Program-made: the position numbers and the translations under genes
NCBI GenBank assembly: GCA_964467955.1
Contig: CAYXTW010000003.1
Span: 4,676-68,675 of the forward strand
Origin: an uncultured Ignavibacteriaceae bacterium
GTDB lineage: Bacteria > Zixibacteria > MSB-5A5 > GN15 > PGXB01
Length of the DNA: 64,000 nt
Direction of reading: 5' to 3'
The notes under the pieces: generated by a model
The model's database searches: none
What the model was told of the DNA's origin: nothing
What the model saw: the letters and a program-made list of their open reading frames with translations, nothing else
Shown here: positions 4,602 to 46,083 of the stretch, one piece after another
Numbering within the stretch: the first letter of the stretch is position 1
Layout: the number at the start of each line of letters is the position of its first letter

Positions 4602-4602
4602 A

Positions 4603-28324: not shown

Positions 28325-31300
28325 GTGTACCTAAAGAGACTGGAACTTCTCGGATTTAAATCATTTCCGGATAAAACCGTGGTCAAACTGATACCCGGGG
28401 TCACTTCCGTGGTGGGGCCGAACGGATGCGGCAAAACCAATATTCTGGATGCGATTCGCTGGGTGCTGGGCGAGCAGAAAGTATCTCTTCTTCGCGGCGC
28501 GAAAATGGAAGAAATTATCTTTAATGGGACGCACGATGTCAAACCGCTGGGTATGGCCGAAGTCACGCTCGTGATTCAAAATAATAAAGGGGTCCTTCCG
28601 ACCGAATACAGCGAAGTGCAGGTGACTCGCCGCCTGTTCCGCTCGGGGGAATCGGAATACCTGCTTAACAAAGTCCCCTGCCGCTTAAAGGATATTATCG
28701 ACCTTTTTATGGATACCGGGGTCGGGGCGCATATTTATTCCGTGATACAGCAGGATATGATCGATGCCATCCTATCCGACAGGACCGATGACCGTCGCTT
28801 TTTATTCGAGGAAGCCTCAGGTATTTCCAAATACAAGAGCAGAAAAAAAGCGGCTATTCGCAAATTGGAAGCCACCGATGCCGATCTCGTGCGATTGAAC
28901 GATATCGTATCCGAAGTTAATACGCAGGTGAATTCGCTTAACCGCCAGATGAGAAAGGCGAGGCGATACAAGGAATTTTCGGACGAATTAAAAGGCTGGG
29001 AATTGTTTTTAAGCAAGAACGCCATCGATGAACTAAGCCATGAATACAGGGAATTATCCAATCAGAGGGAGATGCTTGCGGATAACAAAGTAAAATCGGA
29101 AACGGATATTGATATTATAAGCGCCTCGCAGGAGACTGAACGAAAGAAGTTGATTGATCTGGAAAAACAGCTTGCTGAAATTTCCAATGATATTTTTAGA
29201 AAATCCGAGGAAGCACACACCGTCGAGCGCGAGATTTCAGTCCTGAATGAAAGGCGTGATAATGCGCGCCAATTAAGAGAAAAAAACGTCCTCGACATTG
29301 AGGCTTATGCAATACGCAAAGAGAATCTCCTTGAGCAAATCGGACAGCATCAGAGAGAAATGACATCAATCGATGAAGCGCTGAGTCGGCTCGAAAATGA
29401 AATCAAGGAGAAAGAGGAAGCGCTGACAGCTGTCGATGAAAAAATTCTCGAGGCCCGTCGCGAACGCGAAAAAATTAATCAAAAATTAATGGCCCTGGAA
29501 GGAAGATTGTCGGCCGGCCAAAGCGATGACAATAATCTCAGGGAACAGGAGAACGAAATCGGCTCCGGCATGTCGACACTCGATGAGCGGATTGGGGAAT
29601 TGAATCTCGAACATGAGTCTCTTCTCGGCAAAAAAACAGATTGCGAGATTAAACTGGCCGAACTGGAAAATAAAATCAACGAAACCAAATCAAAGAAAAG
29701 TACTCTGGAAAATGACCTCTCAGCCCTGGACGAGCAATATGATGAAATATCCGGCAAAATATATGAGCTTTCATCGTCGCTCGAAGCCGCCCAGGCGAGG
29801 AATCATCTTTTGAAACAGATGGTGGCACAGTTCGAAGGTTATGGCAGCGGGGTCGTATCCGCCATGGAAAGCCGCGAAAGATGGCCCGGCTTAATCGGCA
29901 CGGTGGCGGATAATTTGACGCCTCAATCCGGCCATGAACAACCGATTGAAGCCGCTCTGGGCGAAAGGGCCGGATTTATGATTTGCCGTGAACGAGCAAC
30001 GGCTGACGAAATAATCGATTACCTCAAAGGCGAAGTAAAAGGCAAAGCCGGACTGGTAATTCTCGAGTGCGCGGGACCCGATCCGCTTTCAATTCGTCCG
30101 CAGATAACCGACGAAGGCTTTATCGGCTGGGCTGACGATTTCGTCAGTGTTTCTGATGAGCTACAAACACTGGCATCGTTATTGCTTGCAACCGTCGCTA
30201 TCGTCAAGCCCGAAAGCGTCAACGATATTCTGGATCAGCTTCCTTCCTATTATTCAGCGGTAACTACCGACGGCAGGATGTTTCGGGGCAGGGCCATAAT
30301 TTCCGGGGGATCTCGGGAGGGATTATCGCTTCTGGGTCGAAAAGAAAAAGTCGCTGAACAGGAAAAAACTATTGCGGAGTTAAATTCAAAAGCCGAGGAA
30401 CTCAGAAAACAAAAGAATAATATTACGACCTCAATTGGTGCTTCTCAAGCGGAACATAAGTCAATGATCAGCGAACTTGATAATCTGAAAGATGATTTGG
30501 AGAGTATTGAAAAGGAGTTGACTGCGAACGATTTTGGGCGTCAATCGACTCGAAAAGAAATCGAACGGCTGGAAAAAGAACGAGGCGAGTTATTGATAAA
30601 ACTGGATGCACTGCGCACCAGACAGTACAGCTTAAATCTTAATCATGAAGAACTGGCAAAAGAAAAGGAAACAATCGTCAATTCTCTAAATGAACAGGGG
30701 GCGCTTATCGAGAATCTCGAGAATGACTCCGAAAACATCGAAAAACTGGTTTCTTCGCTGCAAATTAAACGCGTCGAATTAAAGAGCAAATTTCAGCAAC
30801 TTGAAAGTCAGATCAGGCACACGCGGGAATTAATAAATGAAATAGACACTAATACCACGCGAAAATCAGAGGAAAACCGCCAGGCGGACTCCGAAATAGA
30901 GGGTTCTGCCGAAAAGAATATTTTTCTGGAGCGCCGGCTCCGGGAAATATTCGATCAGCGTGATGCTGTCTCGGAAAATCAGAAGAAGATTCAGGAGATG
31001 CATGATTCGACCCGCGAAAGTCTCGATGCTCGTGAAAAAGAAATAAAACAACTGCGTCAATCACGTGAAGAAATAAACAGTAAATTGCATACCGCCGAAA
31101 TCAGGAATACGGAAATCGAGGCGGAAACGAGAAATATCAGGAAGAAGATACGTGACGAGTATGATGTCAATCTGGAAGATATTGCGGTTGCGGCTCCGAA
31201 TCCTGAAATCCCTCTCGAAAAAAGACCGGAACGCATGTTGCATCTTCGTGAACGGATGAAAGATTTCGGAGCGGTCAATTTACTGGCGCTGGAGGAATAT

Positions 31301-31990
31301 AGAGTTACCAAAGAGCGGCAGGAGTTCTTGACTTCGCAGATGAACGATCTGATGAGTGCCAAAGCGACGTTGCAATCGACGATCATTAAAATCAATCAGA
31401 CCGCCAGGCGGTTATTTATGGAGACCTTCGCCAAAGTTCGATCCAATTTCCAGGAAGTATTTGCAGAGCTGTTTACCGGTGGAGAATCAGATATTCGATT
31501 GCTCGATGAAAACGACCCTCTGGAATCTCCGATTGAAATCATTGCTCGGCCGCGCGGGAAGAGACTTTTATCGATTACGCAGATGTCCGGTGGTGAGAGG
31601 GCGCTGACCGCAATATCGCTTTTGTTCGCCATCTATCTGGTCAAACCGTCGCCGTTCTGTATCCTTGACGAAATCGATGCACCACTCGATGATGCCAATA
31701 TTCACCGCTTCTTGAAAATTATTAAAACTTTCTCCGACCAGACACAGTTCATTATTATTACGCACAACAAGATCACGATGGAGGCGGCCGATATTCTCTA
31801 CGGTATAACCATGGAGCAGCCGGGCGTCTCACGGGTTGTTTCGGTGCGATTCAATGAGCCGGGCGCGGAAAAACTGATTAATACTTCTATTTCTGATATT
31901 GAGCCGATAGCGCCGGCAAAAATCCCGGAAGCGATAAAAGAAAGAATAACTCCACAGGTTAATATCAAACCGGCCGACGGTAAGGAATAA
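28325..31990 (+). CDS. smc: Chromosome segregation protein SMC
   Basis: 1221 aa. N-terminal Walker A (GPNGCGKTN), long coiled coils, a hinge, and a C-terminal signature motif (LSGGERALTAISLLFAIY) with Walker B (ILDEIDAPLD). GTG start. Confidence 0.9.
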   Translation: MYLKRLELLGFKSFPDKTVVKLIPGVTSVVGPNGCGKTNILDAIRWVLGEQKVSLLRGAKMEEIIFNGTHDVKPLGMAEVTLVIQNNKGVLPTEYSEVQVTRRLFRSGESEYLLNKVPCRLKDIIDLFMDTGVGAHIYSVIQQDMIDAILSDRTDDRRFLFEEASGISKYKSRKKAAIRKLEATDADLVRLNDIVSEVNTQVNSLNRQMRKARRYKEFSDELKGWELFLSKNAIDELSHEYRELSNQREMLADNKVKSETDIDIISASQETERKKLIDLEKQLAEISNDIFRKSEEAHTVEREISVLNERRDNARQLREKNVLDIEAYAIRKENLLEQIGQHQREMTSIDEALSRLENEIKEKEEALTAVDEKILEARREREKINQKLMALEGRLSAGQSDDNNLREQENEIGSGMSTLDERIGELNLEHESLLGKKTDCEIKLAELENKINETKSKKSTLENDLSALDEQYDEISGKIYELSSSLEAAQARNHLLKQMVAQFEGYGSGVVSAMESRERWPGLIGTVADNLTPQSGHEQPIEAALGERAGFMICRERATADEIIDYLKGEVKGKAGLVILECAGPDPLSIRPQITDEGFIGWADDFVSVSDELQTLASLLLATVAIVKPESVNDILDQLPSYYSAVTTDGRMFRGRAIISGGSREGLSLLGRKEKVAEQEKTIAELNSKAEELRKQKNNITTSIGASQAEHKSMISELDNLKDDLESIEKELTANDFGRQSTRKEIERLEKERGELLIKLDALRTRQYSLNLNHEELAKEKETIVNSLNEQGALIENLENDSENIEKLVSSLQIKRVELKSKFQQLESQIRHTRELINEIDTNTTRKSEENRQADSEIEGSAEKNIFLERRLREIFDQRDAVSENQKKIQEMHDSTRESLDAREKEIKQLRQSREEINSKLHTAEIRNTEIEAETRNIRKKIRDEYDVNLEDIAVAAPNPEIPLEKRPERMLHLRERMKDFGAVNLLALEEYRVTKERQEFLTSQMNDLMSAKATLQSTIIKINQTARRLFMETFAKVRSNFQEVFAELFTGGESDIRLLDENDPLESPIEIIARPRGKRLLSITQMSGGERALTAISLLFAIYLVKPSPFCILDEIDAPLDDANIHRFLKIIKTFSDQTQFIIITHNKITMEAADILYGITMEQPGVSRVVSVRFNEPGAEKLINTSISDIEPIAPAKIPEAIKERITPQVNIKPADGKE

Positions 31991-32008
31991 TGACAGGTTT
32001 GAACGGCT

Positions 32009-32926
32009 ATGGCTTCCGGATTTAAAAAGCTCAAGGAATCTCTGACAAAAACACGACAGAATATTTTAGGGAAAATCAGCGGTTTAATAGGCGGGCGGAA
32101 AATCGACGATGACCTGCTGGATGAAATCGAGGAAATTCTGCTTAAGGCCGATATCGGTGTTGCCGCCACCGAAAAAGCGATTGAGACCCTCCGCGAACAG
32201 GCGAGGAATGAAAAGCCCACCGGTTCCGATGATGTCTTCAGACTTCTTAAAAAACAACTTTCAGACATTTTAAACAAAACCGGATCCGAAGCCTCGTCTG
32301 CGATTTCATCCAAACCGATCGTCTGGATGATAACCGGTGTAAACGGCACCGGCAAGACCACTACCGTCGGTAAACTGGCGCATTACTTCAAAAGCAACGG
32401 CAAATCGGTAATGATTGCCGCCTGCGATACATTTCGCGCCGCAGCGGTCGAGCAATTGGGCATCTGGGCGGAACGCTCCGGGGTTGCCTTCGTGAAGGCG
32501 CACTCGGGGGCCGATCCTGCCGCGATTGCGTTCGACGCGGCTAATTCGGCGATTGCACGAAATATCGATTATCTCCTGATAGATACCGCCGGTCGATTGC
32601 ACACCAAGGCGAACCTTATGAAAGAATTGGAGAAAATCCGCCGCGTTACGGAAAAAGTAATTCCACCCGAACAGATTTTCGCCAAGTTAATTATTGACGG
32701 CACTACAGGCCAGAATGCACTATCGCAGGTAAAAATATTCGCCGATGCCGTCGGATGCGACGGTTTAATCGTTACCAAACTCGACGGTACCGCGCGTGGT
32801 GGGATCATGGTAGCCATAGCGGAAGATCTGTCGGTGCCGGTCGATTTTATCGGCATCGGTGAAAAAATAGATGATTTGCGACCATTTAACTCCGAAGAAT
32901 ACGTGGAGGCGCTCTTTGAAAGTTGA
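32009..32926 (+). CDS. ftsY: Signal recognition particle receptor FtsY
   Basis: 305 aa. SRP-GTPase NG domain with GVNGTGKTTT, DTAGR and TKLDG. Confidence 0.9.
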   Translation: MASGFKKLKESLTKTRQNILGKISGLIGGRKIDDDLLDEIEEILLKADIGVAATEKAIETLREQARNEKPTGSDDVFRLLKKQLSDILNKTGSEASSAISSKPIVWMITGVNGTGKTTTVGKLAHYFKSNGKSVMIAACDTFRAAAVEQLGIWAERSGVAFVKAHSGADPAAIAFDAANSAIARNIDYLLIDTAGRLHTKANLMKELEKIRRVTEKVIPPEQIFAKLIIDGTTGQNALSQVKIFADAVGCDGLIVTKLDGTARGGIMVAIAEDLSVPVDFIGIGEKIDDLRPFNSEEYVEALFES

Positions 32927-33317
32927 ACAGATCCAAGTACCGACGCATCAGCGGGAAGAACTGATCGATATTACCGGCGAGGTAAGAAGTTATATCACCA
33001 AGGCAGGTTTACAAAACGGCTTGATAGTTTTGTACGTACCTCATACAACCGCGGGGGTTACGATTAATGAAAATGCCGATCCCGACGTCGCGCGGGATAT
33101 TCTTTATAAACTCAATAAAGAAATTCCTCAGAGCGATGATTATCATCATGGCGAGGGGAACTCGGACGCCCATATAAAATCATCACTTGTCGGTGCTTCA
33201 TTGCAAATAATCGTTTCGGACGGTAAGCCTGTTCTGGGAACATGGCAGGGAATATATTTCTGCGAGTTTGACGGCCCTCGGACAAGGAAGTTATATCTTA
33301 AAGCCATTTCGGATTGA
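32915..33317 (+). CDS. yjbQ: YjbQ/UPF0047 family protein (secondary thiamine-phosphate synthase-like)
   Basis: HTTAGVTINENADPDV and HHGEGNSDAHIKSSLVG are UPF0047 motifs. Probable TTG start overlapping the ftsY stop. Confidence 0.7.
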
Positions 33318-33787
33318 TGCTTAAAATCAAAATCATCACGGTAGGAAAAAATAAAGAAGCATGGGTTGATGATGCGATAAAGCATTATGAAAAACTTTTG
33401 ACAAAATTCGCCAAACTTTCATTTGTCTACATCCACGACATAAAGAAGACACGCGCCCTTGGCGATGATGACGTAAAAAAGCTGGAGGCATCAAAAATAA
33501 AGAAAAAACTCAGCCCCAATTATAAAGTTGCGTTAAGTGATAAAGGCCGGCAGTACAATTCAGAGGAATTTTCGAATTTCATATCAAAGCTTATGCAGAA
33601 TTCCGGCGGTGTGATTGAAATTATTATCGGGGGCGTGTATGGGCTGGACGAATCCATAATCGATGAATGCAATGATATAATTTCCCTCTCCCCCATGACG
33701 ATGTCGCATCAACTGGTTCGGCCGGTATTGCTCGAGCAGCTTTATCGCGGCTTTTCGATTTTATCCGGCGGTAAATATCATAAATAA
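33314..33787 (+). CDS. rlmH: 23S rRNA (pseudouridine1915-N3)-methyltransferase RlmH
   Basis: 157 aa SPOUT-fold protein. N-terminus (M)LKIKIITVGKNKEAWVDDAIKHYEKLL is RlmH-like. Confidence 0.85.
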   Translation: MMLKIKIITVGKNKEAWVDDAIKHYEKLLTKFAKLSFVYIHDIKKTRALGDDDVKKLEASKIKKKLSPNYKVALSDKGRQYNSEEFSNFISKLMQNSGGVIEIIIGGVYGLDESIIDECNDIISLSPMTMSHQLVRPVLLEQLYRGFSILSGGKYHK

Positions 33788-33846
33788 ATTAGAGCCGATC
33801 GCTGGGCGACCGGCTCCCTATAGAGGAAAGTACACTGCATCTATGG

Positions 33847-36800
33847 TTACTTAAGAAGTATCATTTTCTTCGAAACCGCATGGTTTCCGGCCTCAACCCG
33901 ATAGAGATAGACACCTGAGGCCACCGATTGACCGAAATCATTGGTGCCATCCCATTCAATCGTTACAACGCCCGCTTCATCATGCCTTGAAATCTTTCTG
34001 ATGGCCTGGCCATTGATATTATAGATGGTCATGGTCCATGTGCACGCCGCGGGCAGGGAGAGATCGATTGAAGTCATGGGATTAAACGGGTTCGGATAAT
34101 TCTGCGAGACTTCAAATCGATCGGGAACCAGAGCGGATTTGATCTTCGTTTGCATCATATCACCGTGAAAAGTCGCGAATGAAAATTCTTTAAGCCTGAT
34201 ATCACCCGAACCGTTGCAATTAATATTGAGCAGGTTACCGTCGCCGATACCAATTGCCCGGCCGTATTCCAGACTGTATATCAGGACTCTGATTTCAGAA
34301 TCATTGATACTATATATATAATCCATCCCTTCAGCCATTTCACCAAGTTGTGGAATCGCCGGATTAATACCGTCGTATTCAAAAACCAGCACCCCCGCGC
34401 CGACATTACAGTACGATTCCGCGTTGATGGAAATACCGCCATTATTCGATTCGACCGACAACTCCATCCGGGCAAAATTCGGCGATAACCTTGGTATCGC
34501 CAGCGCATCGCCAACGATAATTCTTATGAGATAAACTAAATCGGCAACCGTCAGAGCATAACCGTCGGCGTTAACATCGGAAGCGGCCATCTGTCCGTCG
34601 GGATTTATGGTAAAGGCGGCCATACCGTAAATGAAAAAGTTCGTGTAAATAACAGCATCGGCGATTTCGTACGGGACTCCGTTGAGGTTAAGGTCGCCGC
34701 GGGCATCTATATCTTCGGGATGCTTGACGCATATACCGCCATTATAGAAATATATGCAGCGAACAGGAGAAACCTTATCACCGATCATACAGCTGTCCGG
34801 AGTTCCGAAACCTATCGGGCGGCTCTCTTCGGGATAATGGATATCATCCGACTCCTCCCAGATAATATGGCCGGAATAATTATAAATCCGAGCCTCTACA
34901 TATTGCAATTCACCGGTCGGATCGGCAAAGGAATTGTCGCCACAGTCCAGCCAGTAGAAACTAATCGGTAAATATTGACCCCCGATAGTCTGATCATTGG
35001 ATACAATCATAGTGATATTGGCAACCACGCCTTCCGGCGTCAACTGATCCTGTGGCGGGTGATGCGGCCCATCATTTTGATCGGCAATCCCGACCAATCT
35101 TATTAATCCGGACGGGCAGTTCGAGCCACAGTTGCCTTCCGTAGAAAGACGGTATGTAAAATATTCCCAATCCGGAATCGCCGGCCCCTTGTTTACATTT
35201 AAGAATGACATTCCTGAGTTATCATATCCGATCAATAGATCGAATCCTGCGATAAGATCATTAGTCTGGACTTTCACTCTGACCGGCACGCGCGAACCGA
35301 CAACCACACAGGAATCGGTTTCGATTGAGACATTGACACAAACCGAACAGATGGCTGATGGGAAAACCGTTACAAAAAGCGATTTTGAATCAGTCGAGCA
35401 GCCATCATAAGCTTCCAGACAAAATTCATAAGTCGTGTCGATATTATCGGGCGTGAAGCATACGACACCGCTGTCATCCCGGATCGGAGTGTATGTGCCC
35501 GGGCCGCAGGTTTTGGTTATCGTCAGCGGATTGCCGTCCGGATCAACGGCAAAAATTCCATCTATGCAAATCTGGCCGGTATCATTACTGCACCAGGGAG
35601 CCATTATATCTTCGGGGATCGTCAATTCCGGAGTCTGATTCCGCGTAACGGTTATATCCAGGCTGCAACTGTCGACGCCGCACACCGACGACGCCACGAC
35701 CGTCACCGTTTGAGTTCCTTCATCTGTTATCGGAACGCAGACCATGCCGTCATCATAACTTCCGGCCGGTCGGACGACAACGTCGATACTGTCACCGGTC
35801 AGCTCGACCTCGAAGCAAATGTCGGTCGAGTCGGTGAAGCATAACAAAGTGTCGATATCGCCGGGGCAAGTTATCTGCGGAGGATTAAGTATTGCTACAT
35901 TGGCCCTGACCGTGCATGTGTCGGCATTGCATGGAGATTGGGCGATAACCGTGATCTCATAATGACCTGACGTGTCGGCCATAAATGTCAATAGGCTATC
36001 GGCAAAGCTGTACTGACCAATCGGTGTGACTGTGACGGTCGCAGAAATCGGCGAGATGGGCAGAAGAACCGAAATATTACTCGGTCCACAAAGCACTTTA
36101 TTTATCGCAAGGTCAGGACATATAATTTCAACGTATTCATTAAAAGTAACATTGACCGTTACCTGACACGTATCGGCGCCGCAGATTTCCGAAGCGACAA
36201 CGTCTATAATATATGTCCCGGCCGTATCGGCGGTAAAGCAAAGCTGTCCGTCGGAATAATTGCCGAATGACGGAGATACTTCCGCCGAGGCTGGCGCTAT
36301 CACCAACGGGATACAAATCTCCTCCGGAACGCAAAGACTTACGTTAAATGGCTCAGTGGGGCGTTCGATTTCTGCTGCCGGTCCGGTCGTGACGATGATA
36401 CAAACTTCATCTGAACCGGAATCTTTGCATTCGTCATAAGCGGTTACGGTCAGACAATACGTGCCGGTATCCTCGGGAGTAAAGCAGACAAAGCCCAGAT
36501 TGGAATTATAATATCCGACTGGTGCGACAACAACCGAATCGATATCGTTATCCGTATCGATAATAGAAACTGATCGGCAAATTTCCTCGAAGTCACACTG
36601 GAAGTAAGCGGTATCATTACCGGCATCGACAACCGGCGGCGTATTGAAGATAACATCGACATCGAATCGACAGCTATCGTCGCCGCAATCGGTTTCGGCC
36701 AGAAGGTCGAATGCATAATGGCCGGCCGTGTCGGCCATGAAACATATCTCGCCGGCGCTATATTGCCCGAAAGGAAGAACCGTCACCTCGGCATAATCCG

Positions 36801-39800
36801 GCATGATCGATACCGGCAAACAAATCGTTTCCGGACCGCAGAGGAATATCGAAGTATCAGAAGGACAGATAACCTGGGCCGCCTGGCCGATATTTACGGC
36901 AAATTCGAAAGTACACATATCGGTACCGCATTCAGACTCGGCCGTAACTTCAATTGAATACGTACCGGAAGTATCTGCCTCGAAACAAAGCTGGCCGTCT
37001 TCATAAACGCCTTCGGGAATAGTACTTATGACCGCATCATCAGGCGTGAATGAAATCGGATAACATATCGTCGTAGTCCCGCAATATGAGAAATCTATCG
37101 GGTCCAGCGGACAATCGATATCGGCCGCCTCATTTGATGTCACCCTTATGAATATCGTATCGCTCGCTGAACGCTGGCAATCATCCACGGCCGTGATGAT
37201 AATCCGGTAGGTGCCGGTATCATCTGGAGTAAAACAGACCTGGCCGGTTTCAGAATCATACGTCCCCAAATCAGTCGAGACAATTATGATATTGTTGTCC
37301 GGATCGGAGACGGTCGCATCAAAACAAATCTCCTCGAACTGGCACTGAAAGATATCGAAATCGTTAGCCGCCCGGACAACCGGCGGGCTGTTTAAAATAA
37401 CTTCAACAATGGCCGTGTCGATGGTAACGGCACGGCAGCTATCATAGGCAGAAATAATTATTTCATGAATCCCCGGTGTCACATCCTCAAGACAGACAAA
37501 CTCATTGACAAGATTAGCACCGGTAACGATTATTGAATCTAAATTATTATCGACATCATTCACGATTAACGGCAAGCAGAGCGGGTCGTAATTGCAGACA
37601 ACCACTGAAGTATACGGTTCGATATTAACGGTCGGTGGTGAGTTTAATGTAACCATAACAGTCGTGGCCGCTGATGCCGTTTTACCGCAGGAATCGGTCG
37701 CGCTAATTTCTATATTGTACAATCCTGACGATTGGGGAGTGAAACAAACTTCACCGGTTTCGGCGTTATAATCACCATCCGGCGAAACCGTAACGGCCTG
37801 CAGATTCTTATCAACATCATTTATATCCACCGCAAAACAAATCTCGGTCGGCTCGCATAAATACACTGCAAAATCTTCGGCCGAAGTAATGGTCGGGGCA
37901 CTGTTCATTATAACGGTAATTATGGTCGAGTCGGAATCGGTACTACCGCACGCATCGGTCGCCGTCACCTTGACGACATACTCTCCGGCCGCGGTCGGCG
38001 TAAAGCATATCCGGCCCGAGATCGGATTATAAACGGCGCCCTCGGGCCAAAATGCTATATCGACCAGATTATCGTCGGCATCGGCAATACCAACCGGAAT
38101 ACAGATTTCCCCTTCGCCGCAGAGCGTCATCGTTTTTGACGGCGGCAATAGCACCAGCGGCCGTGAATTCATAGTCACGCTGACCGTGAATTCACAACTA
38201 TCGATGCCGCAATCATTGGCGGCAACTATTTTGAGATTTTTCTCTACCTCACAATTGGTATAGAAACAGATTGTCCCGTCGTCGGCATCATACCAGGCCG
38301 AGGGCGGGAATATGGAAATTTTAGCATCATCGGGTATGCCGTTTATTGGAAAACAGAGCGTATCCGGCCCGCAGATAAATACCGATGTATCGACGGGGCA
38401 ATCGAGATTTATCGCTTGACCGGCAATTACGGTTACCACGGTCGTGTCGGAATCGAGAGCCCCACACTCGTCAGTAAGAGTCGTCACAACATTATATTCG
38501 CCCGGGCCGGTAGGAGTGAAACAGACAAAACCATTAGAATAACTTCCCGGGCTCGTTTCTATCGAATTGATATTTTCGTCGATATCTGATACATCAACAG
38601 GTACACAAATTTCTCTATCCCATGCACACACCGTAATCGTCGAATCAGGTCCGGAAACAACTACTGGTGGGCTGTTTAAATCAACTGTGATACAAATCAT
38701 CGCCGTATCGGCGGAACAGGAATCAAGAGCGACAGCTTCAAAACAATATGATCCCGCTGTATCGGCCACAAAACTTAGAAGGCCGGTTTCGGAATTAATC
38801 TGCCCGAATTCGGAATTCAAACCAAAAGTAAGCGGGGCATCATCCGAATCGGCGGCATGTATCATATATTCAATTGTCATCCCCGGATCGCATATGAAAT
38901 ATTCTGTGTCGGCGGAAATAATTTCGGGCGGTACATTGATAACTACGTCAACGGTGAAGGAGCAATCCACCTTGCCGCACTCGTTCTCGGCCTCGACATT
39001 TATCACATAACTGCCCGAAGTCTCGGCATCGAAACAAACCATACCGCCGGCATACATCCCCATCGGGGATACGGTTACGATTGCATCACTCGGCGTAATA
39101 ACAACAGGGCGGCAGATAGTCTCCGGGCTGCAAAGTTTGAGCGCTGTATCAGGCGGACAGATAACCTGGGGTGCTTCGCCTATCTCGACGGAGAATTGCA
39201 GATTACATGTATCGGCCCCGCACTCGGTCGAGGCGATAACTTCGAAATTATAAACACCAGTCGTATCCGCCATGAAGCAAAGATTTTGACCGTCATAATA
39301 TGTTCCCTCTGGAACAGTAACATGCGCATCGACAGGATATATCGGCAAATTATAACATATCGTATCCGGATTGCAAATCGATTCAACGATCTGGTCAACT
39401 GGGCATTCAATGCGCGCCGGTTCACCTAAGTCAACCACAAAGGCCAACTGGCATGTATCAGCGCCGCATTCGGCGGCGGCGATGATTTCCATGTTATATG
39501 TTCCGGCCGTATCCGGCATGAAACAAAGATCGCCGTCAGTATAGGTCGCGTAATCGGGAATAGTAATGACAGCGTTATCAGGTGTAATCGTCAGAGGATA
39601 ACAGACCGTCTCGCCCGGACAGATGGATTCATAAATCGGTTCGTCGGGGCAAGTTATTTCAGCCGGTTGATTCAATTGAACATTAAATATGATATCACAG
39701 CTGTCGGCACCGCAGTCCGCGGTGGCAATAACCTTGATGATATATGTCCCGGAAGTATCGGGAGTGATACACAACTCACCATTAGAATAATAAGCACCTT

Positions 39801-42800
39801 CGGAAACAGCCACAGTGGGATCATCCGGAGTAATATCAAGCGGGATGCAAATCTCCTGCAAACCGCACAAATTATAATCAAACGGTTCCGACGGACAATT
39901 GATTTCGGCTATCTCACCGACAACAACATCGATAACGGTCGTATCCACACCTGTCGCATAACAGGAATCGGTCGCCGTAACGATAATCGTATCAATCCCG
40001 GGACCATCAGGAGTATAACAGACTTTACCCGTAATCGAGTCATAGACGGTGCTTTCATTGGTGGAAATTATAAATAAATTGTTATCATAATCGGTAATAT
40101 TGACATCGAAACAGATTTCCTCAAGTCCGCACAGGAGAACTCCGAAATCATCGGCCGAACTCACCAACGGAGCAGAATTAAACATGATAGCGATTACGGT
40201 CGTATCGGCCGACATGACGCCGCATTCATCGGTCGCCTCAATAATAAATGTATAATCACCGGCTCCGGTCGGAGTGAAGCATACATAACCGTTATCATAA
40301 GAACCCTCGCCAATAAGAGTTATATCCGTTATATTATGTTCAAGGTCACTGATCTCAACCGGGAAACAAAACTCGGTCGGCTCACACATAAAGATAGTGT
40401 CATTGGTCGCCGAAATGATAATCGGCGGACTATTCAGTTCTACGCCAATACCTATCAAGGCCGTATCGGCTCCGCATCCATCAGCGGCCTCAATCGAGAA
40501 CCAATATATGCCTGAGGATAAATCAGCAGTAAAGCTTATTTCACCGGTGTTCGGATCGATTGTACCAAAAGATGAAAGCAACGCAAAAGTAATCGGATCC
40601 CCTTCATTATCAATGGCCTTAACCTTATAATTGAAAACTTCACTGGCCTCGCAGCTGAAGAAAGCGGTATCGCCCGACACAATTTGCGGCGCGCTATTAA
40701 ATATAACATCGACACCAAAATGGCAGCTGTCAAGGCCACAGTCAGTTTCCGCCTTTACGAAAATTTCATAAAATCCGGAAGTGTCAACTTCAAAACAGAC
40801 CTCACCGTTATCATACACACCGACAGGACTTACAGTCACGACGGCGTTCTGCGGCAACAATCCCACCGGGCGACAAATCTGATCGGCGCCGCACAATTCG
40901 ACTGATGTATCCGCCGGGCAGGTCAGCTGCGGAATTTCGCCGATGCTGATGTCAAATACAACCTGACAGGTGTCGGAACCGCAATCGGCGGTGGCAATAA
41001 CATCTATTATATACGTTCCCGTCGTATCGGGCGTAAAACATATCTCTCCATCATGGTACGTAACACCATCGGGAACGGTCACGACGGCATCAAGCGGCGC
41101 AATTGTCAACGGCTCGCAGATTTCTTCCTGACCGCAAATACTTCGACTGATTGGTTCTTCGGGACAATCTATAAAGGCGGCATCACCGGTCGTAACGGTA
41201 ATGACCGTGGTATCGACATCAGAAGTATAACATGAATCAGTTACGGTCACAGCGATCTCATAGACTCCGGGACTATCGGGAGTGAAACAAATTTGCTTAT
41301 TTACTGAATCATAAACCGCCGCCTGATTCGTACTGACAATAAAAATATTATTATCCGGGTCAATTATATCGACATCGAAGCAAATTTCTTCGAAGTCGCA
41401 TTGGAATACCTCAAAATCGTCGGCCGTAACCACCTGCGGAGGAGTGTTAAGAACAATCGTAATGACGGTCGTATCGGATGCCGTATTACCGCAGGAGTCG
41501 GATGCCTCGATTATAAAAGTAAACTCACCGGAAGCTTGCGGAGTGAAACAGACATAACCGTTCGAGTAAGTACCATCACCTGTCAAAGAGATTGATTGAT
41601 TATCATTATCCGGATCGGTTACCGAGACCGGGAAACAGTAATCACTCAGCTCGCACATAAAGATTGATGTATCCGGCGATGAGACCACCACCGGTGAACT
41701 GCCAAGGCTGACGTCGACATTTATAGTATCCGCACCTTTGGCCCCGCATTCATCGACGGCGGACACAGTCAGGTTATAAACTCCATCGGAATCCGGTGTG
41801 AAACATATCTGTTCATTTCCGGCATCATAAAAACCGGTCGGTGAAACCGTCACGTTGAAAAGATTAAAATTGACGTCGAAAATTTCGACATCGAGACAAA
41901 TTTGTTCCGGCCGGCACAGGTCAACAGCTGTATCCGCCGGCAAGCTGACGACCGGCTTGGCGTTGATTATGACGGCGACATTCACCGAATCGGTATCTTC
42001 GGCACCACAGGAATCAACGGCGTGAACAACAATCGGATACGTCCCTGAAACTGTCGGCGTAAAACAAACTCGCCCCAAATCAGGATTGTAAAATCCGTCT
42101 CGGGTTATAAAAGTATTTTCGATATTGCCGTCCATATCGGTTACTCCCACCGGTATACAAATCTCCTGCGGCTCACAAATAAATATCGATGTATCCGGCG
42201 GCGCCATTACCAGCGGCGGGGAGTTTAAAGTGACATTGACTGAAAATTCGCAACTGGTCAGACCGCAGCCGGTTTCGATGACAACCGTAATATCTTTTTT
42301 CACCGAGCAGTTGGTATAAAAACAAATCGACTGATTATCAGCATCATACCATACCGATTGCGGAAATATCGTCACATTCCCCCCGGGAAGTTCACCGATT
42401 GGAATACAAATCGTGTCCGGCTCACATATAAATACATCACTGTCATCTGGGCATTCAATCGACGGCGGCTCTCCATAAACGACCGTAACAACTACCGTAT
42501 CATACGGAATGGGAGGGCAGGCCATGTCTTTCGGTAATTCGCCGCGCAGACATTTATCTGTGGCCTCGTAAATAAAAACATAGTCGGCCGAGTCGACGGC
42601 ATCGGGCAGAAAGCAGGTAACACCGCCGGTATCGCTGGTCATGGTAAATGTCCCCGGCCCAGCTGTCTGGCTAATAATGAGAGAATCGTATTCAAGGTCG
42701 GGATCAAAAGCATCGATATCAAAACAGATTGTATCGGGCTGGCATATAACGAATTTTCGGTCCGGATTATTAAAGCTCGGAAACGTATTCCATTGAGCAT

Positions 42801-43575
42801 TTATACATATCACAGCGGTATCGGCAGAACAGCCATCGGAAGCTTCAAATGTATGGCAATTCTCACCCATTAAATCCGTCCAGAAACGAAACCAGCCGGT
42901 AACGGAATCAATATAACCGTTGTCCGATAGTACTCGGTACGTGACTTGGTCATTATCCGGGTCGTCAGCCTCTACATAAATGTCAAAAAAGTCATTGTCG
43001 TAACAATTATAAAGACTGGTATCACCGGTTATTATTACCGGCGGCTGATTTTCATATACAACATATGTTCGCGTCGCAAAAAGAGTGTCGCCAGCATCAT
43101 TGTACGCCATAAAGGTGACATCAGAGCTGCCCGCTGATATCGGCGTATATTCATAATATCCGTAGGCAGGCGGAATTGATGGCGTCGATTCAAAATCGCC
43201 CGGCCCCGATGTTTTTTCAAGATTGATTATCGATTGCAAATCTTTGCCGGAGACTATAATCGTATCATAAATAGTTGTCCCGAGACAAACATCGATTATG
43301 TCATCGAAATTATTGAAATACAGCTGGCTGTCGGGGCAGCTACTACCGTCCGACGGCAGCGGCTGGCCGATATCGATGGCCTCGATGTCTCCACTCACCG
43401 GAACGCTCGATACCGTACCGTTCGTTTTATAATTCCCCCCGATTGATACCTGATCGGCCGTATCATAAACGGCGGCTTCCGGGGTTTTTGCCTGAACATA
43501 GGTGCCAATCGTAATAGCGGCTATAAGAAAGATTAAAGAAACCGCGGCCTTTTTTAGCCGTGTTCGTCTAATCAT
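33847..43575 (-). CDS. Giant (3242 aa) secreted cell-surface protein: signal peptide, about 30 tandem roughly 85-aa Cys-containing HYR/Ig-like repeats, a cohesin-like domain, a type-I dockerin, and a T9SS type-A C-terminal sorting domain
   Basis: RBS GGAGGAAAG before ATG 43575. Signal peptide is MIRRTRLKKAAVSLIFLIAAITIGTYVQA. The repeats share the pattern PPxhxCPxDTxxFxCxxxxICFPVxhxDxDxNhxxh...G.YxxGxhCFTPxxxGxYxhxhxAxDxCGxxxxDTxhhTV. Dockerin Ca-loops are DLNLNGVPYEIADAVIY and DVNADGYALTVADLVYL. C-terminal ...VSQNYPNPFNPMTSIDLSLP...GVYLYRVEAGN... is Por_Secre_tail. Confidence 0.8.
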   Translation of the reverse strand: MIRRTRLKKAAVSLIFLIAAITIGTYVQAKTPEAAVYDTADQVSIGGNYKTNGTVSSVPVSGDIEAIDIGQPLPSDGSSCPDSQLYFNNFDDIIDVCLGTTIYDTIIVSGKDLQSIINLEKTSGPGDFESTPSIPPAYGYYEYTPISAGSSDVTFMAYNDAGDTLFATRTYVVYENQPPVIITGDTSLYNCYDNDFFDIYVEADDPDNDQVTYRVLSDNGYIDSVTGWFRFWTDLMGENCHTFEASDGCSADTAVICINAQWNTFPSFNNPDRKFVICQPDTICFDIDAFDPDLEYDSLIISQTAGPGTFTMTSDTGGVTCFLPDAVDSADYVFIYEATDKCLRGELPKDMACPPIPYDTVVVTVVYGEPPSIECPDDSDVFICEPDTICIPIGELPGGNVTIFPQSVWYDADNQSICFYTNCSVKKDITVVIETGCGLTSCEFSVNVTLNSPPLVMAPPDTSIFICEPQEICIPVGVTDMDGNIENTFITRDGFYNPDLGRVCFTPTVSGTYPIVVHAVDSCGAEDTDSVNVAVIINAKPVVSLPADTAVDLCRPEQICLDVEIFDVNFNLFNVTVSPTGFYDAGNEQICFTPDSDGVYNLTVSAVDECGAKGADTINVDVSLGSSPVVVSSPDTSIFMCELSDYCFPVSVTDPDNDNQSISLTGDGTYSNGYVCFTPQASGEFTFIIEASDSCGNTASDTTVITIVLNTPPQVVTADDFEVFQCDFEEICFDVDIIDPDNNIFIVSTNQAAVYDSVNKQICFTPDSPGVYEIAVTVTDSCYTSDVDTTVITVTTGDAAFIDCPEEPISRSICGQEEICEPLTIAPLDAVVTVPDGVTYHDGEICFTPDTTGTYIIDVIATADCGSDTCQVVFDISIGEIPQLTCPADTSVELCGADQICRPVGLLPQNAVVTVSPVGVYDNGEVCFEVDTSGFYEIFVKAETDCGLDSCHFGVDVIFNSAPQIVSGDTAFFSCEASEVFNYKVKAIDNEGDPITFALLSSFGTIDPNTGEISFTADLSSGIYWFSIEAADGCGADTALIGIGVELNSPPIIISATNDTIFMCEPTEFCFPVEISDLEHNITDITLIGEGSYDNGYVCFTPTGAGDYTFIIEATDECGVMSADTTVIAIMFNSAPLVSSADDFGVLLCGLEEICFDVNITDYDNNLFIISTNESTVYDSITGKVCYTPDGPGIDTIIVTATDSCYATGVDTTVIDVVVGEIAEINCPSEPFDYNLCGLQEICIPLDITPDDPTVAVSEGAYYSNGELCITPDTSGTYIIKVIATADCGADSCDIIFNVQLNQPAEITCPDEPIYESICPGETVCYPLTITPDNAVITIPDYATYTDGDLCFMPDTAGTYNMEIIAAAECGADTCQLAFVVDLGEPARIECPVDQIVESICNPDTICYNLPIYPVDAHVTVPEGTYYDGQNLCFMADTTGVYNFEVIASTECGADTCNLQFSVEIGEAPQVICPPDTALKLCSPETICRPVVITPSDAIVTVSPMGMYAGGMVCFDAETSGSYVINVEAENECGKVDCSFTVDVVINVPPEIISADTEYFICDPGMTIEYMIHAADSDDAPLTFGLNSEFGQINSETGLLSFVADTAGSYCFEAVALDSCSADTAMICITVDLNSPPVVVSGPDSTITVCAWDREICVPVDVSDIDENINSIETSPGSYSNGFVCFTPTGPGEYNVVTTLTDECGALDSDTTVVTVIAGQAINLDCPVDTSVFICGPDTLCFPINGIPDDAKISIFPPSAWYDADDGTICFYTNCEVEKNLKIVAANDCGIDSCEFTVSVTMNSRPLVLLPPSKTMTLCGEGEICIPVGIADADDNLVDIAFWPEGAVYNPISGRICFTPTAAGEYVVKVTATDACGSTDSDSTIITVIMNSAPTITSAEDFAVYLCEPTEICFAVDINDVDKNLQAVTVSPDGDYNAETGEVCFTPQSSGLYNIEISATDSCGKTASAATTVMVTLNSPPTVNIEPYTSVVVCNYDPLCLPLIVNDVDNNLDSIIVTGANLVNEFVCLEDVTPGIHEIIISAYDSCRAVTIDTAIVEVILNSPPVVRAANDFDIFQCQFEEICFDATVSDPDNNIIIVSTDLGTYDSETGQVCFTPDDTGTYRIIITAVDDCQRSASDTIFIRVTSNEAADIDCPLDPIDFSYCGTTTICYPISFTPDDAVISTIPEGVYEDGQLCFEADTSGTYSIEVTAESECGTDMCTFEFAVNIGQAAQVICPSDTSIFLCGPETICLPVSIMPDYAEVTVLPFGQYSAGEICFMADTAGHYAFDLLAETDCGDDSCRFDVDVIFNTPPVVDAGNDTAYFQCDFEEICRSVSIIDTDNDIDSVVVAPVGYYNSNLGFVCFTPEDTGTYCLTVTAYDECKDSGSDEVCIIVTTGPAAEIERPTEPFNVSLCVPEEICIPLVIAPASAEVSPSFGNYSDGQLCFTADTAGTYIIDVVASEICGADTCQVTVNVTFNEYVEIICPDLAINKVLCGPSNISVLLPISPISATVTVTPIGQYSFADSLLTFMADTSGHYEITVIAQSPCNADTCTVRANVAILNPPQITCPGDIDTLLCFTDSTDICFEVELTGDSIDVVVRPAGSYDDGMVCVPITDEGTQTVTVVASSVCGVDSCSLDITVTRNQTPELTIPEDIMAPWCSNDTGQICIDGIFAVDPDGNPLTITKTCGPGTYTPIRDDSGVVCFTPDNIDTTYEFCLEAYDGCSTDSKSLFVTVFPSAICSVCVNVSIETDSCVVVGSRVPVRVKVQTNDLIAGFDLLIGYDNSGMSFLNVNKGPAIPDWEYFTYRLSTEGNCGSNCPSGLIRLVGIADQNDGPHHPPQDQLTPEGVVANITMIVSNDQTIGGQYLPISFYWLDCGDNSFADPTGELQYVEARIYNYSGHIIWEESDDIHYPEESRPIGFGTPDSCMIGDKVSPVRCIYFYNGGICVKHPEDIDARGDLNLNGVPYEIADAVIYTNFFIYGMAAFTINPDGQMAASDVNADGYALTVADLVYLIRIIVGDALAIPRLSPNFARMELSVESNNGGISINAESYCNVGAGVLVFEYDGINPAIPQLGEMAEGMDYIYSINDSEIRVLIYSLEYGRAIGIGDGNLLNINCNGSGDIRLKEFSFATFHGDMMQTKIKSALVPDRFEVSQNYPNPFNPMTSIDLSLPAACTWTMTIYNINGQAIRKISRHDEAGVVTIEWDGTNDFGQSVASGVYLYRVEAGNHAVSKKMILLK

Positions 43576-44213
43576 CTTTCCTCCATAGATAATAAAAATC
43601 TCTCCTGTGAATCTTGGCTTCGGCGGTAATGGGGTTACAGGATTTCTGCTTCAATCATTATGACATTCAATCTCTTCTTCTTACCTGCCTCGGCTATTGG
43701 GTGAGGAACTAAGGCTGGTAATAATTTCCGGCGAGTACTACCACAAAACCACAATAAATATATCCCAAAACGCCGATAAGTCAAGAATTTTCTGGAAATC
43801 TATTCCGCCCGAAAGTCGTTTTCTGACATTCTATTAACGAATCTTTACGGGTCTTCAACATCTTCTCCTTTCGTCCAAAATCATCCCATGCAATCCGACA
43901 TAAAACTATAGATTGCCATTGCTATTTCAGCAACTGGCTTGCCTTCCTGATACAGGCAAAATTTTCCGGATTACCAATCGAAAACTGTTCAGTAATTAAT
44001 CATATCCGTCATTTATAGATGGGAAATAATAATTCGTAACACAAATGAATCAAGCAGGTTACGCCGATTATCCCGGAGGTTTATATCTAAGGATTGTATT
44101 CCGCCGGCAATGAGTACGTCCGGCCGATTGTCTGACTCCCTGAAAGCAGCCTCACTATTTATGCATTTGATTTCACAAAATACTGCTTTCGGAGCGGAAT
44201 TTCATATAAAAAT

Positions 44214-44244
44214 GGGCGGAGGCTGTGATGGCCGCCGCCCTTTT
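44214..44244. terminator. Rho-independent terminator downstream of the SPFH gene (minus strand); hairpin is flanked by A-run and T-run
   Basis: GGGCGGAGGC-tgtgat-GGCCGCCGCCC with TTTT on the plus side and TATAAAAAT (reads TTTTTATA on the minus strand) on the other. Confidence 0.5.
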
Positions 44245-44257
44245 AGAGGTGATGATC

Positions 44258-45174: not shown

Positions 45175-46083
45175 TCAGATATCTACCTTAAAGGGGATGA
45201 TGACATCGGAATATCTGATACGAGTCGTGTAAATCTGCTGCATACCGCCGACTGTCACCGTATCGATTCTCTCGAAATAGGGGCCTTCGAATGTAATCAA
45301 CCGATAAAACTTATCACTGCCTGGCGGCGTTCTCCAACCGCCAGTATAATTCGATCCGTCGCTGCTTAAACTTATATTCCGCCGGACACCGTCATTCGTT
45401 TCGGCAAAAAGGATATCCCTGTTTACACTTCGGTAAGTCAGGGTGTCACCGCGGGGGAGCTTGACTATATTATTTTTAAATATAAAATAAAAGCCCATTT
45501 TGCTTCTAATCGTACTTTTAACATCAATAACGTCACCGCTTTGAAAAGCGGAAAACGAACCACCGCTCCCCGGCAGCAAAGTCCCGTATTGCCGGGGATC
45601 AAGATTGTCTACGCCGTAACCCCAAAAACGCCAGCCATGAAAAGAATTATCGTCAGTGAACAATTTAAGAAAATACGCATATCTTGTCACGGCAATCTCG
45701 AGGTGACGATATATTGAAGTATCCGCACCGACGATCCTGTGCAGCGTACCATAAAGTGTATCATTGATGCGAACCACGGCATCATAAATATCCTCAAAAC
45801 CATACATACTTGCCTGCCCGCCGATATCGACTTGATAATATCTCCGGCCGGATTCCAGCTCGTAGAAGTAGTAGAAGCCGTTTTGGAAAAAGGATTCAGA
45901 CCGTTCCGGATATAGATAGAAAGAAAATAGTTCCTGGCCTTCCTGAGTATTATTTATGAAGTTTACCATCTCTTGCTGATAAGAAGTACTCACCACCGTC
46001 GGCTTCCGGCCACAGCCGGAAATAATAAGCGCAGAAAACAGTAGTAGAATTGTGCTATTCTTATGTAATATACTGATAATCAT
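45175..46083 (-). CDS. Hypothetical lipoprotein
   Basis: 302 aa. Signal peptide with lipobox LIISGC. No recognisable domains. 4-nt overlap with uvrB upstream. Confidence 0.4.

Follow-up and report, generated by a model that had tools for sequence, protein, structure and literature searches.

Introduction

Secretion of cargo with a type-A C-terminal domain (CTD) through type IX secretion systems (T9SS) is established in Porphyromonas and Flavobacterium, and this pathway serves as the model for the export route proposed below. TfsA and TfsB of Tannerella are T9SS type-A cargo composed of Ig-like domains and form an S-layer-like lattice; a CTD of type B (CHU_C / TIGR04131) is typical of SprB-class proteins. 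Adhesins of the SiiE and SraP type are essentially free of cysteine, are exported through T1SS or by sortase routes and have tips that bind ligands. Members of the Zixibacteria occur widely in sediments and groundwater. To our knowledge no member of the phylum is available in pure culture, and nothing is therefore known about its cell surface. Cohesin and dockerin proteins outside cellulosomes were reportedly treated by Peer and colleagues in 2009. Such non-cellulosomal proteins are also present in ANME archaea (PMC9012536). Here, we describe a giant gene of an uncultured Zixibacteria bacterium and the protein which it encodes.

Results

An intact giant gene at a conserved chromosomal position

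The gene is a single minus-strand open reading frame (ORF) at positions 33847-43575 of the window, the 64-kb stretch of DNA which was analysed. As had been proposed in an earlier reading of the letters alone (the sequence-only reading), its 9.7 kb encode 3242 amino acids in an uninterrupted frame (0 internal stops) and it is the largest gene of the window by ORF length, the runner-up having 1392 codons; the gene is intact. The product is very acidic (481 acidic versus 79 basic residues in the mature protein), has a mass of roughly 335 kDa and contains 162 cysteines, or 5.0% of its residues. Features of the gene and protein are listed in Table 1. The strong ribosome-binding site expected from that reading is present, with GGAGGAAAG at 43584-43576 immediately 5' of the ATG at 43575. 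Further upstream, the TTGACT/TATATT element is a putative promoter, the hexamers and spacing of which are kept in the orthologous loci L001 (56% amino acid identity) and L003 (38%). The 680-nt upstream region gave no match in Rfam. The terminator-like hairpin begins 30 nt past the stop codon and separates the giant gene from rlmH, which converges on it.

Table 1. Features of the giant gene and of the protein which it encodes (positions in the window).
Feature	Amino acids	Position	Strand	Basis or remark
Sigma-70-like promoter (putative), TTGACT-16 nt-TATATT		43757..43784	-	~180 nt 5' of start codon; consensus scan 10/12
Shine-Dalgarno sequence GGAGGAAAG		43576..43584	-	Abuts ATG; TGGAGGAAAGATG invariant in 3 aligned orthologous loci
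Signal peptide (MIRRTRLKK / AAVSLIFLIAAITIG / TYVQA)	1-29	43489..43575	-	Read from translation
Ser/Gly/Asp/Thr-rich low-complexity linker	30-93	43297..43488	-	Translation; no Pfam match
Degenerate N-terminal Ig-like domain R00	94-182	43030..43296	-	Family type-I HMM, E 5.6e-8
30 Ig-like repeats R01-R30	185-2744	35344..43023	-	~12 type I, 13 type II, 5 Cys-poor or irregular
Cohesin-fold domain 1	2745-2950	34726..35343	-	Insertions relative to canonical cohesins
Dockerin-like segment	2957-3024	34504..34707	-	Two D-x-N-x-(N/D)-G-x5-A-D motifs, followed by a hydrophobic helix
Second beta-sandwich, cohesin-like	3034-3144	34144..34476	-	AF2 pLDDT 80-90
T9SS type-A C-terminal sorting domain (SQNYPNPFNP ... 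GVYLYRV)	3160-3242	33850..34098	-	
Intrinsic-terminator-like hairpin		33791..33817	-	12-bp stem, 8 G-C pairs; consensus match only

The protein belongs to a conserved family for which no function has been described. The nearest species-representative genome has 89% DNA identity, and the gene order BamA-L21-UvrB-unknown-(Band7)-GIANT-RlmH-YjbQ-FtsY-SMC is conserved even for an orthologue of 38% identity, located in a genome of 3.5 Mb; rlmH was found downstream in 42 of 80 loci. As the chromosomal slot is the same in orthologues of only 38% identity, the gene family seems to be fixed in the lineage.

Size and repetitiveness are the only properties of the gene that would suit mis-assembly of a repeat array or a pseudogene in decay, an explanation which we consider hardly credible. 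In addition to the unbroken reading frame, an identical protein is recorded in NCBI and JGI, and more than 120 full-length homologues share its head and tail. The DNA copies of the repeat diverged long ago and reach no more than 84% identity, over short stretches, and the array is therefore not an assembly artefact; at the protein level the median identity among copies is 31%, and the repeats are positionally orthologous in relatives.

Signal peptide and type-A sorting domain

In the N-terminus (MIRRTRLKKAAVSLIFLIAAITIGTYVQA, followed by K), read by eye, the n-region is basic, the core is hydrophobic and VQA forms a cleavage-type site. The signal peptide that had been suggested is of the Sec type, with n-, h- and c-regions visible in the translation, and the same N-terminus is present in the close homologues P0002-P0006. 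Beyond the linker, R00 was detected over positions 14-95 of an HMM for which 600 type-I repeats from the family were used. In many homologues, additional N-terminal domains stand ahead of the equivalent of R00.

At the opposite end of the protein, the T9SS type-A CTD which had been recognised from its motifs was recovered at amino acids 3160-3239 by both TIGR04183 (44.8 bits, cutoff 23) and PF18962 (34.4 bits, cutoff 27), and has a beta-sandwich fold matching solved CTDs. CHU_C, the type-B model, overlaps this match at 18-22 bits versus a cutoff of 27. Components of the T9SS machinery (PorU/V, SprA, GldKLMN) were absent from the 20 ORFs scanned in the window, in which a second CTD-bearing gene encodes a protein of 502 amino acids; CTD proteins number in the hundreds in Zixibacteria metagenome-assembled genomes.

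Two classes of Ig-like repeat

A self-iterated HMM identified 30 tandem repeats of approximately 83 amino acids each over residues 185-2751 (per-domain E 1e-15 to 1e-32), which bears out the initial estimate of about 30 Cys-rich repeats, with one degenerate copy (R00) in addition. The array had been supposed to run up to the CTD; it stops at approximately amino acid 2744 and some 400 amino acids of non-repeat sequence intervene. The single motif given for the repeats, with 4-5 conserved cysteines, likewise proved to be a fusion of two separate classes having either 4 or 6 cysteines. Type I repeats have 4 cysteines and a conserved Asp cluster (D25, D66 and D74 in 92%, 97% and 71% of repeats, respectively), while type II repeats have 6 cysteines, none of these three Asp residues and a 3-residue deletion. 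The Cys-poor or irregular repeats are R01, R02, R10, R17 and R30.

Co-occurrence of cysteines was assessed in 3014 repeats from 120 homologues (numbers denote columns of the repeat alignment). Columns 18 and 49 both contained Cys in 2507 repeats, neither did in 493 and they were discordant in 14 (phi 0.98); for columns 3 and 73 the respective counts were 901, 1989 and 124 (phi 0.91). Cys was found at column 12 in 99% and at column 68 in 97% of repeats. Because the repeat cysteines are gained and lost pairwise, we infer three disulfides, C12-C68, C18-C49 and, in type II only, C3-C73. In R08 the expected pairs are Cys804-Cys870, Cys814-Cys865 and Cys820-Cys846. Type I repeats have the Asp cluster in place of the third Cys pair, and this cluster probably binds Ca2+. 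Binding of a metal cluster by the cysteines is less likely, given their strict pairwise covariation and their location in different strands and loops of the beta-sandwich. What counts against the disulfide reading is that Zixibacteria are known mostly from anoxic settings, where extracellular disulfides are less expected.

The repeats have an Ig-like beta-sandwich fold, and three consecutive repeat domains were predicted to form a linear rod. The type I family consensus scored above the Pfam gathering thresholds of Big_9 (31.0 versus 23.6) and PKD (26.3 versus 23.5), single repeats being below threshold for both, and the type II consensus gave no significant Pfam match (E<=10). Matches to the repeats were of the Big_9, PKD, He_PIG and cadherin-like kind, together with profile matches to domains from the giant adhesins SiiE and SraP.

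This bears on the proposal of the sequence-only reading that the repeats are HYR-like and the protein SprB-class. Type II repeats start with xxCPxD and have a late Cys just before the last strand, a placement which we take to resemble that of the conserved HYR Cys pair, and both a SprB-like size and T9SS dependence would suit a HYR-domain or SprB-class gliding adhesin. However, neither HYR (PF02494) nor the SprB repeat (PF13573) was matched at any threshold tried, whether with the whole protein (E<=0.1) or with the class consensus sequences (E<=10), and neither was among the 25 of 29 families listed for the 30 repeats taken one by one (E<=10). What the type I repeats do match is Big_9 and PKD, and the CTD is of type A rather than the type B of SprB-class proteins, with CHU_C under its cutoff. 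We regard an adhesin of this kind as very unlikely, and neither label was retained.

Homologues have anywhere from 14 to 41 repeats, and close relatives differ by the gain or loss of whole domains, which fits a stalk better than a lattice of fixed geometry. The three modelled domains, moreover, formed a linear rod and no compact tile. It is thus unlikely that the protein, by analogy with TfsA/TfsB, is the principal building block of an S-layer-like lattice rather than a projecting fibre.

A cohesin/dockerin-like/cohesin cassette precedes the sorting domain

The most distinctive part of the giant protein is a conserved cassette at amino acids 2745-3150, consisting of a cohesin, a dockerin-like segment and a second cohesin, which was missing from the architecture first proposed. 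The nine-stranded jelly-roll fold of cohesins was found in it, the top Foldseek match was a type II cohesin dyad aligned over 467 columns (E 1.7e-9), and a profile match to the Archaeoglobus fulgidus cohesin 2xdh covered module positions 301-395 (E 0.084). The Pfam cohesin model PF00963 remained below threshold on domain 1 (19.5-19.7 bits versus a cutoff of 24.1, over the first ~60 residues only). In paralogues the equivalent slot is filled by canonical Pfam cohesins, which exceeded the cutoff in L071b (55 bits), L075b (27.2 bits) and L045b (26.6 bits).

The dockerin-like segment has 23 invariant columns across 24 homologues, in which both motif copies and the helix are kept without change, and was predicted by AF2 to form three helices, at a pLDDT below 50. 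Alignment against the dockerins of CelS and CelD with hhalign placed both loops in register, with weak scores (P 0.0014, probability 17%), each loop having 13 residues versus the usual 12 and thus one extra residue. The segment gave no match to PF00404 or any other Pfam family at E<=10, and no dockerin was present among its PDB profile matches.

The C-terminal cassette was aligned end to end, over 498 amino acids, in almost every one of the 120 giant homologues. It is present in 674 proteins and at no fewer than 385 loci of species-representative genomes, almost all of them Zixibacteria, with several loci per genome, and it is also found on shorter paralogues and behind non-Ig passengers such as a BNR propeller.

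A cohesin-rich, CTD-bearing protein of 3,755 amino acids from Cloacimonadota has been proposed as a cellulosome-like scaffoldin (PMC8542988). Were the giant protein such a scaffoldin or adaptor, enzymes with dockerins would be brought to the cell surface by its cohesins, with the Ig array serving as a spacer. We consider this improbable, as there are only two cohesin-fold domains, both at the membrane-proximal end, domain scans revealed no catalytic or carbohydrate-binding module in the protein, and no stand-alone canonical dockerin proteins were identified. Furthermore, every cassette has a dockerin-like segment of its own, which points to docking of like with like and not to enzyme recruitment.

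Discussion

The giant protein is probably a Sec-exported, T9SS-secreted and outer-membrane-anchored cell-surface fibre of a Zixibacteria bacterium. An uncharacterised surface structure had already been suspected from the sequence-only reading, and this is probably so, a T9SS-exported, surface-anchored fibre being its most likely form. Following the type-A model, the protein would fold in the periplasm after removal of the signal peptide, and the CTD would direct the folded protein to the T9SS translocon. The PorU sortase would cut off the CTD and the new C-terminus would be joined to anionic LPS, so that the protein would be held on the outer membrane by its C-terminal end. The 31 Ig-like domains, each presumably locked by two or three disulfides, would form an extended, titin-like rod of approximately 120 nm if each domain contributes about 4 nm. 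The anchor-proximal cassette would most plausibly dock the fibre, in a Ca2+-dependent manner, to neighbours bearing the same cassette (further copies of itself or the shorter paralogues), so that the surface would bear a coat or network instead of separate fibres. The physiological role is likely to be adhesion or a protective, spacing coat; no ligand-binding tip domain is recognisable in the protein, and adhesion is therefore a guess by analogy.

It can also be proposed, though we think it doubtful, that the cassette is a self-complementary, Zixibacteria-specific assembly module through which the giant fibre and its shorter paralogues polymerise into a Ca2+-dependent outer-membrane network. 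Each T9SS cargo with the cassette would in that case serve as plug and socket at once, having one plug and two sockets. If true, this would represent a new way to build a bacterial surface layer, of which the giant, syntenically fixed gene would be the core structural element.

The analysis yields three testable predictions, namely a disulfide map in which three pairs are defined, the stabilisation of Ig-like domains in one of two ways (by an Asp cluster or by a third disulfide), and a recurrent cohesin-based cassette immediately ahead of a T9SS sorting signal. If the cassette mediates docking of cargo to cargo, assembly by cohesin and dockerin would no longer be confined to cellulosomes but would reach the general architecture of a diderm cell surface, and surface display would gain a compact, T9SS-compatible docking pair; otherwise, the protein simply joins the large T9SS surface proteins that are uncharacterised.

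Compared with known T9SS type-A cargo (the gingipains of P. gingivalis and TfsA/TfsB of Tannerella), the giant protein shares the CTD and its fold, a Sec signal and an Ig-like passenger. It differs in a passenger of 31 domains, in the cohesin/dockerin-like/cohesin cassette directly before the CTD and in its origin from an uncultured phylum, for which a literature search found no paper joining Zixibacteria with type IX secretion or T9SS. HYR and SprB repeats are comparable in size to the Ig-like repeats (~80 amino acids), but the absence of any HMM match and the type-A CTD set the protein apart from them. The rod of tandem beta-sandwiches of ~80-90 amino acids is shared with SiiE, SraP and arrays of Big_9, PKD or He_PIG domains, the profile and fold matches being weak but specific, and the acidic character and the type I Asp cluster recall adhesins stiffened by Ca2+. 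Unlike SiiE and SraP, the giant protein has two to three covarying Cys pairs per domain, a second repeat class in which the Asp cluster is swapped for a third Cys pair, and no recognisable tip domain.

The papers listed by a literature search for Zixibacteria together with cohesin and dockerin were all on cellulosomes, and among those shown none mentioned Zixibacteria. With the non-cellulosomal cohesin and dockerin proteins the giant protein has in common a cohesin fold outside cellulolytic Firmicutes, the union of a cohesin and a dockerin-like element in one polypeptide and a predicted location at the cell surface, and the Cloacimonadota scaffoldin also ends in a T9SS CTD. In contrast to these systems, neither tandem cohesin arrays nor enzymes are present, and the 13-residue dockerin-like loops of the cassette escape PF00404. 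What further distinguishes the Zixibacteria cassette from these systems is its fixed order of cohesin, dockerin-like segment, cohesin and CTD, which recurs on many cargo proteins of a single phylum.

The giant gene and its repeat array

The giant gene was found to be a single uninterrupted frame and the biggest ORF in the window, as the sequence-only reading had claimed. The strong ribosome-binding site that it had noted (GGAGGAAAG) lies immediately 5' of the ATG, and the N-terminus of the product (MIRRTRLKK-AAVSLIFLIAAITIG-TYVQA) reads as a Sec signal peptide, again as proposed. The mature protein is ~335 kDa and very acidic (481 Asp+Glu vs 79 Lys+Arg), and Cys makes up 162 residues (5.0%) of the giant protein, to which an identical sequence is on record in both NCBI and JGI.

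An HMM iterated on the protein itself recovered 30 tandem repeats (R01-R30 from the N-terminus; aa 185-2751, domain E-values 1e-15 to 1e-32), in line with the earlier estimate of about 30, and an HMM of family type-I repeats identified an extra degenerate repeat at aa 94-182 (E 5.6e-8). Copies of the repeat DNA share at most ~84% identity over a few dozen bases, at multiples of ~245-260 nt, and protein identity among the repeats has a median of 31% and a maximum of 58%. Because the repeats are this divergent in both DNA and protein, the array is ancient and no product of faulty assembly; that the gene as a whole is an artefact is essentially excluded. Repeats are positionally orthologous among close relatives (55-73% identity vs 31% for paralogous repeats), and these relatives differ by gain and loss of whole repeat domains.

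The repeats had been described as HYR-like and of the SprB class. Neither PF02494 (HYR) nor PF13573 (SprB) was present in the whole protein, in the results listed for the 30 single repeats (E<=10) or in the consensus sequences derived for both repeat classes from hundreds of repeats of the family, and an adhesin of the SprB/HYR type is essentially excluded. Weak matches were to PKD, K319L-like PKD, Big_9, Y_Y_Y, He_PIG and cadherin-like models. The type-I consensus scored above the Pfam gathering values for Big_9 (31.0 vs 23.6) and PKD (26.3 vs 23.5), and the 30-repeat profile matched SiiE, a giant adhesin, in its BIg domains (E 2e-4) and SraP in its cadherin-like modules.

Repeat classes and cysteine pairs

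Alignment of the 30 repeats gave two classes, type I with four Cys and a D-x-D-x-N loop, and type II with six Cys, beginning xxCPxD and ending D(S/T)C; R01, R10 and R17 are Cys-poor and cadherin-like, while R02 and R30 are irregular. A total of 3258 repeats were gathered from the best 120 homologues (14-41 per protein, median 27), and Cys content was analysed in 3014 full-length repeats aligned to one model with six Cys columns. Columns 12 and 68 were nearly invariant (99% and 97%). Cys was present at both columns 18 and 49 in 2507 repeats and at neither in 493, with 14 discordant (phi 0.98), and at both columns 3 and 73 in 901 and neither in 1989, with 124 discordant (phi 0.91), the repeats being mutually related so that these counts are of non-independent events. 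Coupled loss was also observed at unrelated positions within the giant protein (R10, R17 and R28). This strong coupling of presence and absence implies that C12 pairs with C68 and C18 with C49, and that type II alone has a third pair, C3-C73; the pairs are most simply read as disulfides.

Type I (n=1740) carries an acidic cluster (D25 92%, D/N27 84%, D66 97%, D74 71%), which is missing from type II (n=901), where a three-residue deletion and the third Cys pair are found. Both classes were present in 120/120 homologues and may represent two alternative ways to stabilise the domain, by a putative Ca2+ site (type I) or by an additional disulfide (type II).

The C-terminal cassette

The earlier account had missed a non-repeat region at aa 2745-3150. 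In nearly all of the 120 giant homologues the C-terminal 498 aa can be aligned over their full length, and they always form the end of the protein; mean column identity is 60% across 24 diverse members. AlphaFold2 predicted four parts in this module (pLDDT 76.6; see table), ending in the T9SS type-A C-terminal sorting domain (CTD). Domain 1 falls slightly under the Pfam Cohesin cutoff (19.7 vs 24.1), which is passed at the same position by paralogous cassettes of other Zixibacteria (55, 27.2 and 26.6 bits).

The helical segment has 23 invariant columns and contains D-x-N-x-(N/D)-G-x5-A-D twice, each followed by a hydrophobic helix (GDLNLNGVPYEIADAVIYTNFF and SDVNADGYALTVADLVYLIRIIVG). This layout is common to dockerins, although the loops are of 13 residues here and 12 in dockerins. 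No dockerin was recognised in the segment by Pfam or PDB profile searches, and hhalign against the verified CelS and CelD dockerins placed both loops in register (P 0.0014) with a probability of only 17%; the segment is therefore termed dockerin-like.

Features of the C-terminal module (residues of the 498-aa module) and of the window (nucleotides)
Feature	Position	Strand	Remarks
Beta-sandwich 1	1-206		AlphaFold2
Three-helix segment	213-277		AlphaFold2, low confidence
Beta-sandwich 2	290-400		AlphaFold2
CTD	after beta-sandwich 2		AlphaFold2, fourth part
BcrAD/BadFG-DUF2229 fusion, 1392 aa	21572-25750	-	two BcrAD/BadFG ATPase domains; CoA-enzyme activase type
Giant gene, 3242 aa	33847-43575	-	
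Leader of giant gene, ~680 nt	43576-44257	-	intergenic, unusually long
Sigma-70-like promoter, TTGACT-16 nt-TATATT	43784-43757	-	consensus match, conserved in orthologous leaders
302-aa ORF	45175-46083	-	no Pfam family; start region overlaps uvrB end by 4 nt
502-aa second CTD protein	55417-56925	-	T9SS sorting domain PF18962, 27.0 bits (at cutoff)

Genomic context

The giant gene lies among housekeeping genes: SMC, FtsY, YjbQ and RlmH flank it on one side, and Band 7, a conserved ORF of unknown function, UvrB and BamA are on its other side. The same order was found around two orthologues, P0003 (56% identity) and P0014 (38%, in a 3.5-Mb genome), and rlmH is just downstream in 42 of 80 loci examined. 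Promoter and ribosome-binding site are kept in 3/3 aligned orthologous leaders, and a strong hairpin lies 3' of the stop codon. The leader had no Rfam match; further blocks are conserved with orthologous loci (e.g. GGCAAGCCAGTTGCTGAAATAGCA and a CCGCCG block ~50 nt before the ribosome-binding site), and a ~175-nt leader may be regulatory.

The 302-aa ORF shows a weak LptM-like lipoprotein signal (residues 11-27), and ORFs of similar size (307 and 299 aa) likewise lie between uvrB and the giant gene in two orthologous loci (L001 and L003). No passenger domain was recognisable in the 502-aa protein; as it carries a sorting domain, the region encodes more than one putative T9SS cargo. A TamA-like Omp85 protein (632 aa), TamB (1173 aa) and BamA (830 aa, five POTRA domains) are encoded at 2703-8124 (-) and 48715-51207 (+), a classical diderm outer-membrane biogenesis set which is consistent with an outer-membrane-anchored cargo. 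The BcrAD/BadFG-DUF2229 fusion adjoins a DUF885 protein and has no relation to the giant gene.

Distribution of the family

The best 120 homologues (1.9-4.2 kaa) are named 'T9SS type A sorting domain-containing protein' or hypothetical, and organism-specific names, where given, are all Zixibacteria. With the cassette alone, 674 proteins were retrieved, and at least 385 cassette loci were found in one-genome-per-species contigs, several per genome (e.g. three in chromosome OY969724.1). Records are mostly Zixibacteria MAGs, with some third-party bins labelled Ignavibacteriales. The nearest bin, L004 (CAYVMO010000002.1), a species-representative genome, has 89% DNA identity to 30489-38731 of the window; it and many other cassette-bearing 'MAG TPA_asm' bins are titled 'uncultured Ignavibacteriaceae/Ignavibacteriales', and most other records with an organism-specific title, closed chromosomes included, are Zixibacteria. 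The Ignavibacteriaceae/Ignavibacteriales titles do not look reliable.

Giant Ig-array genes were present at ~50 of the 80 loci, and the others hold shorter paralogues of ~860-880 aa, in which the N-terminal half is not Ig-like; one of them has a BNR propeller. A second gene often follows, whose product has cadherin-like or canonical cohesin domains and after them, of the cassette, only the dockerin-like segment, cohesin 2 and CTD. Such tandem pairs (L025, L026, L045, L055, L065, L071, L075 and L078-L080, from other Zixibacteria genomes) comprise a ~870-aa product with an unknown N-terminal half and full cassette, and a ~660-860-aa product whose N-terminal part has cadherin/Big_9 domains and a canonical Pfam cohesin; they are possible partners of the giant protein. 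Two homologues, P0030 (2284 aa, no CTD) and P0122 (485 aa, cassette and CTD), each come from a 166,327-bp contig; in that assembly a frameshift or a break in gene calling may have split one giant gene in two.

Discussion

A giant T9SS cargo made of Ig-like repeats is of an already known kind, and databases already auto-name such proteins after their CTD; a literature search found no paper on T9SS in Zixibacteria. Four features are new: the repeats follow a design of two classes in which cysteine pairs covary; a conserved cohesin-based cassette lies immediately before the CTD and is spread through a multigene family; the giant gene keeps a fixed chromosomal position within the lineage; and the repeats are, in correction of the earlier reading, neither HYR nor SprB.

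The best-supported reading, with an S-layer subunit as a rival, is a T9SS-exported surface fibre anchored by its C-terminus. The N-terminal linker and degenerate Ig domain would form the distal end, 30 disulfide-stapled Ig-like domains the rod, and the cohesin/dockerin-like/cohesin cassette, then the CTD, the membrane-proximal part. In the PorU/PorV pathway the CTD of T9SS cargo is cut off on attachment to anionic LPS, and by analogy with studied cargo the CTD would be removed here in the same way.

Since the cassette recurs on several cargos per genome and combines a cohesin fold with a dockerin-like element, docking among cassette-bearing proteins is its most economical function; a scaffold for enzymes is a rival reading of the giant protein. 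A role of the cassette as a self-assembling module of a surface network seems rather unlikely, and would be considerably more interesting if true. Docking among cassette proteins would have parallels in archaea, for which non-cellulosomal cohesin/dockerin proteins have been discussed (PMC9012536), and in Cloacimonadota, for which a cohesin-rich scaffoldin with a CTD has been proposed (PMC8542988).
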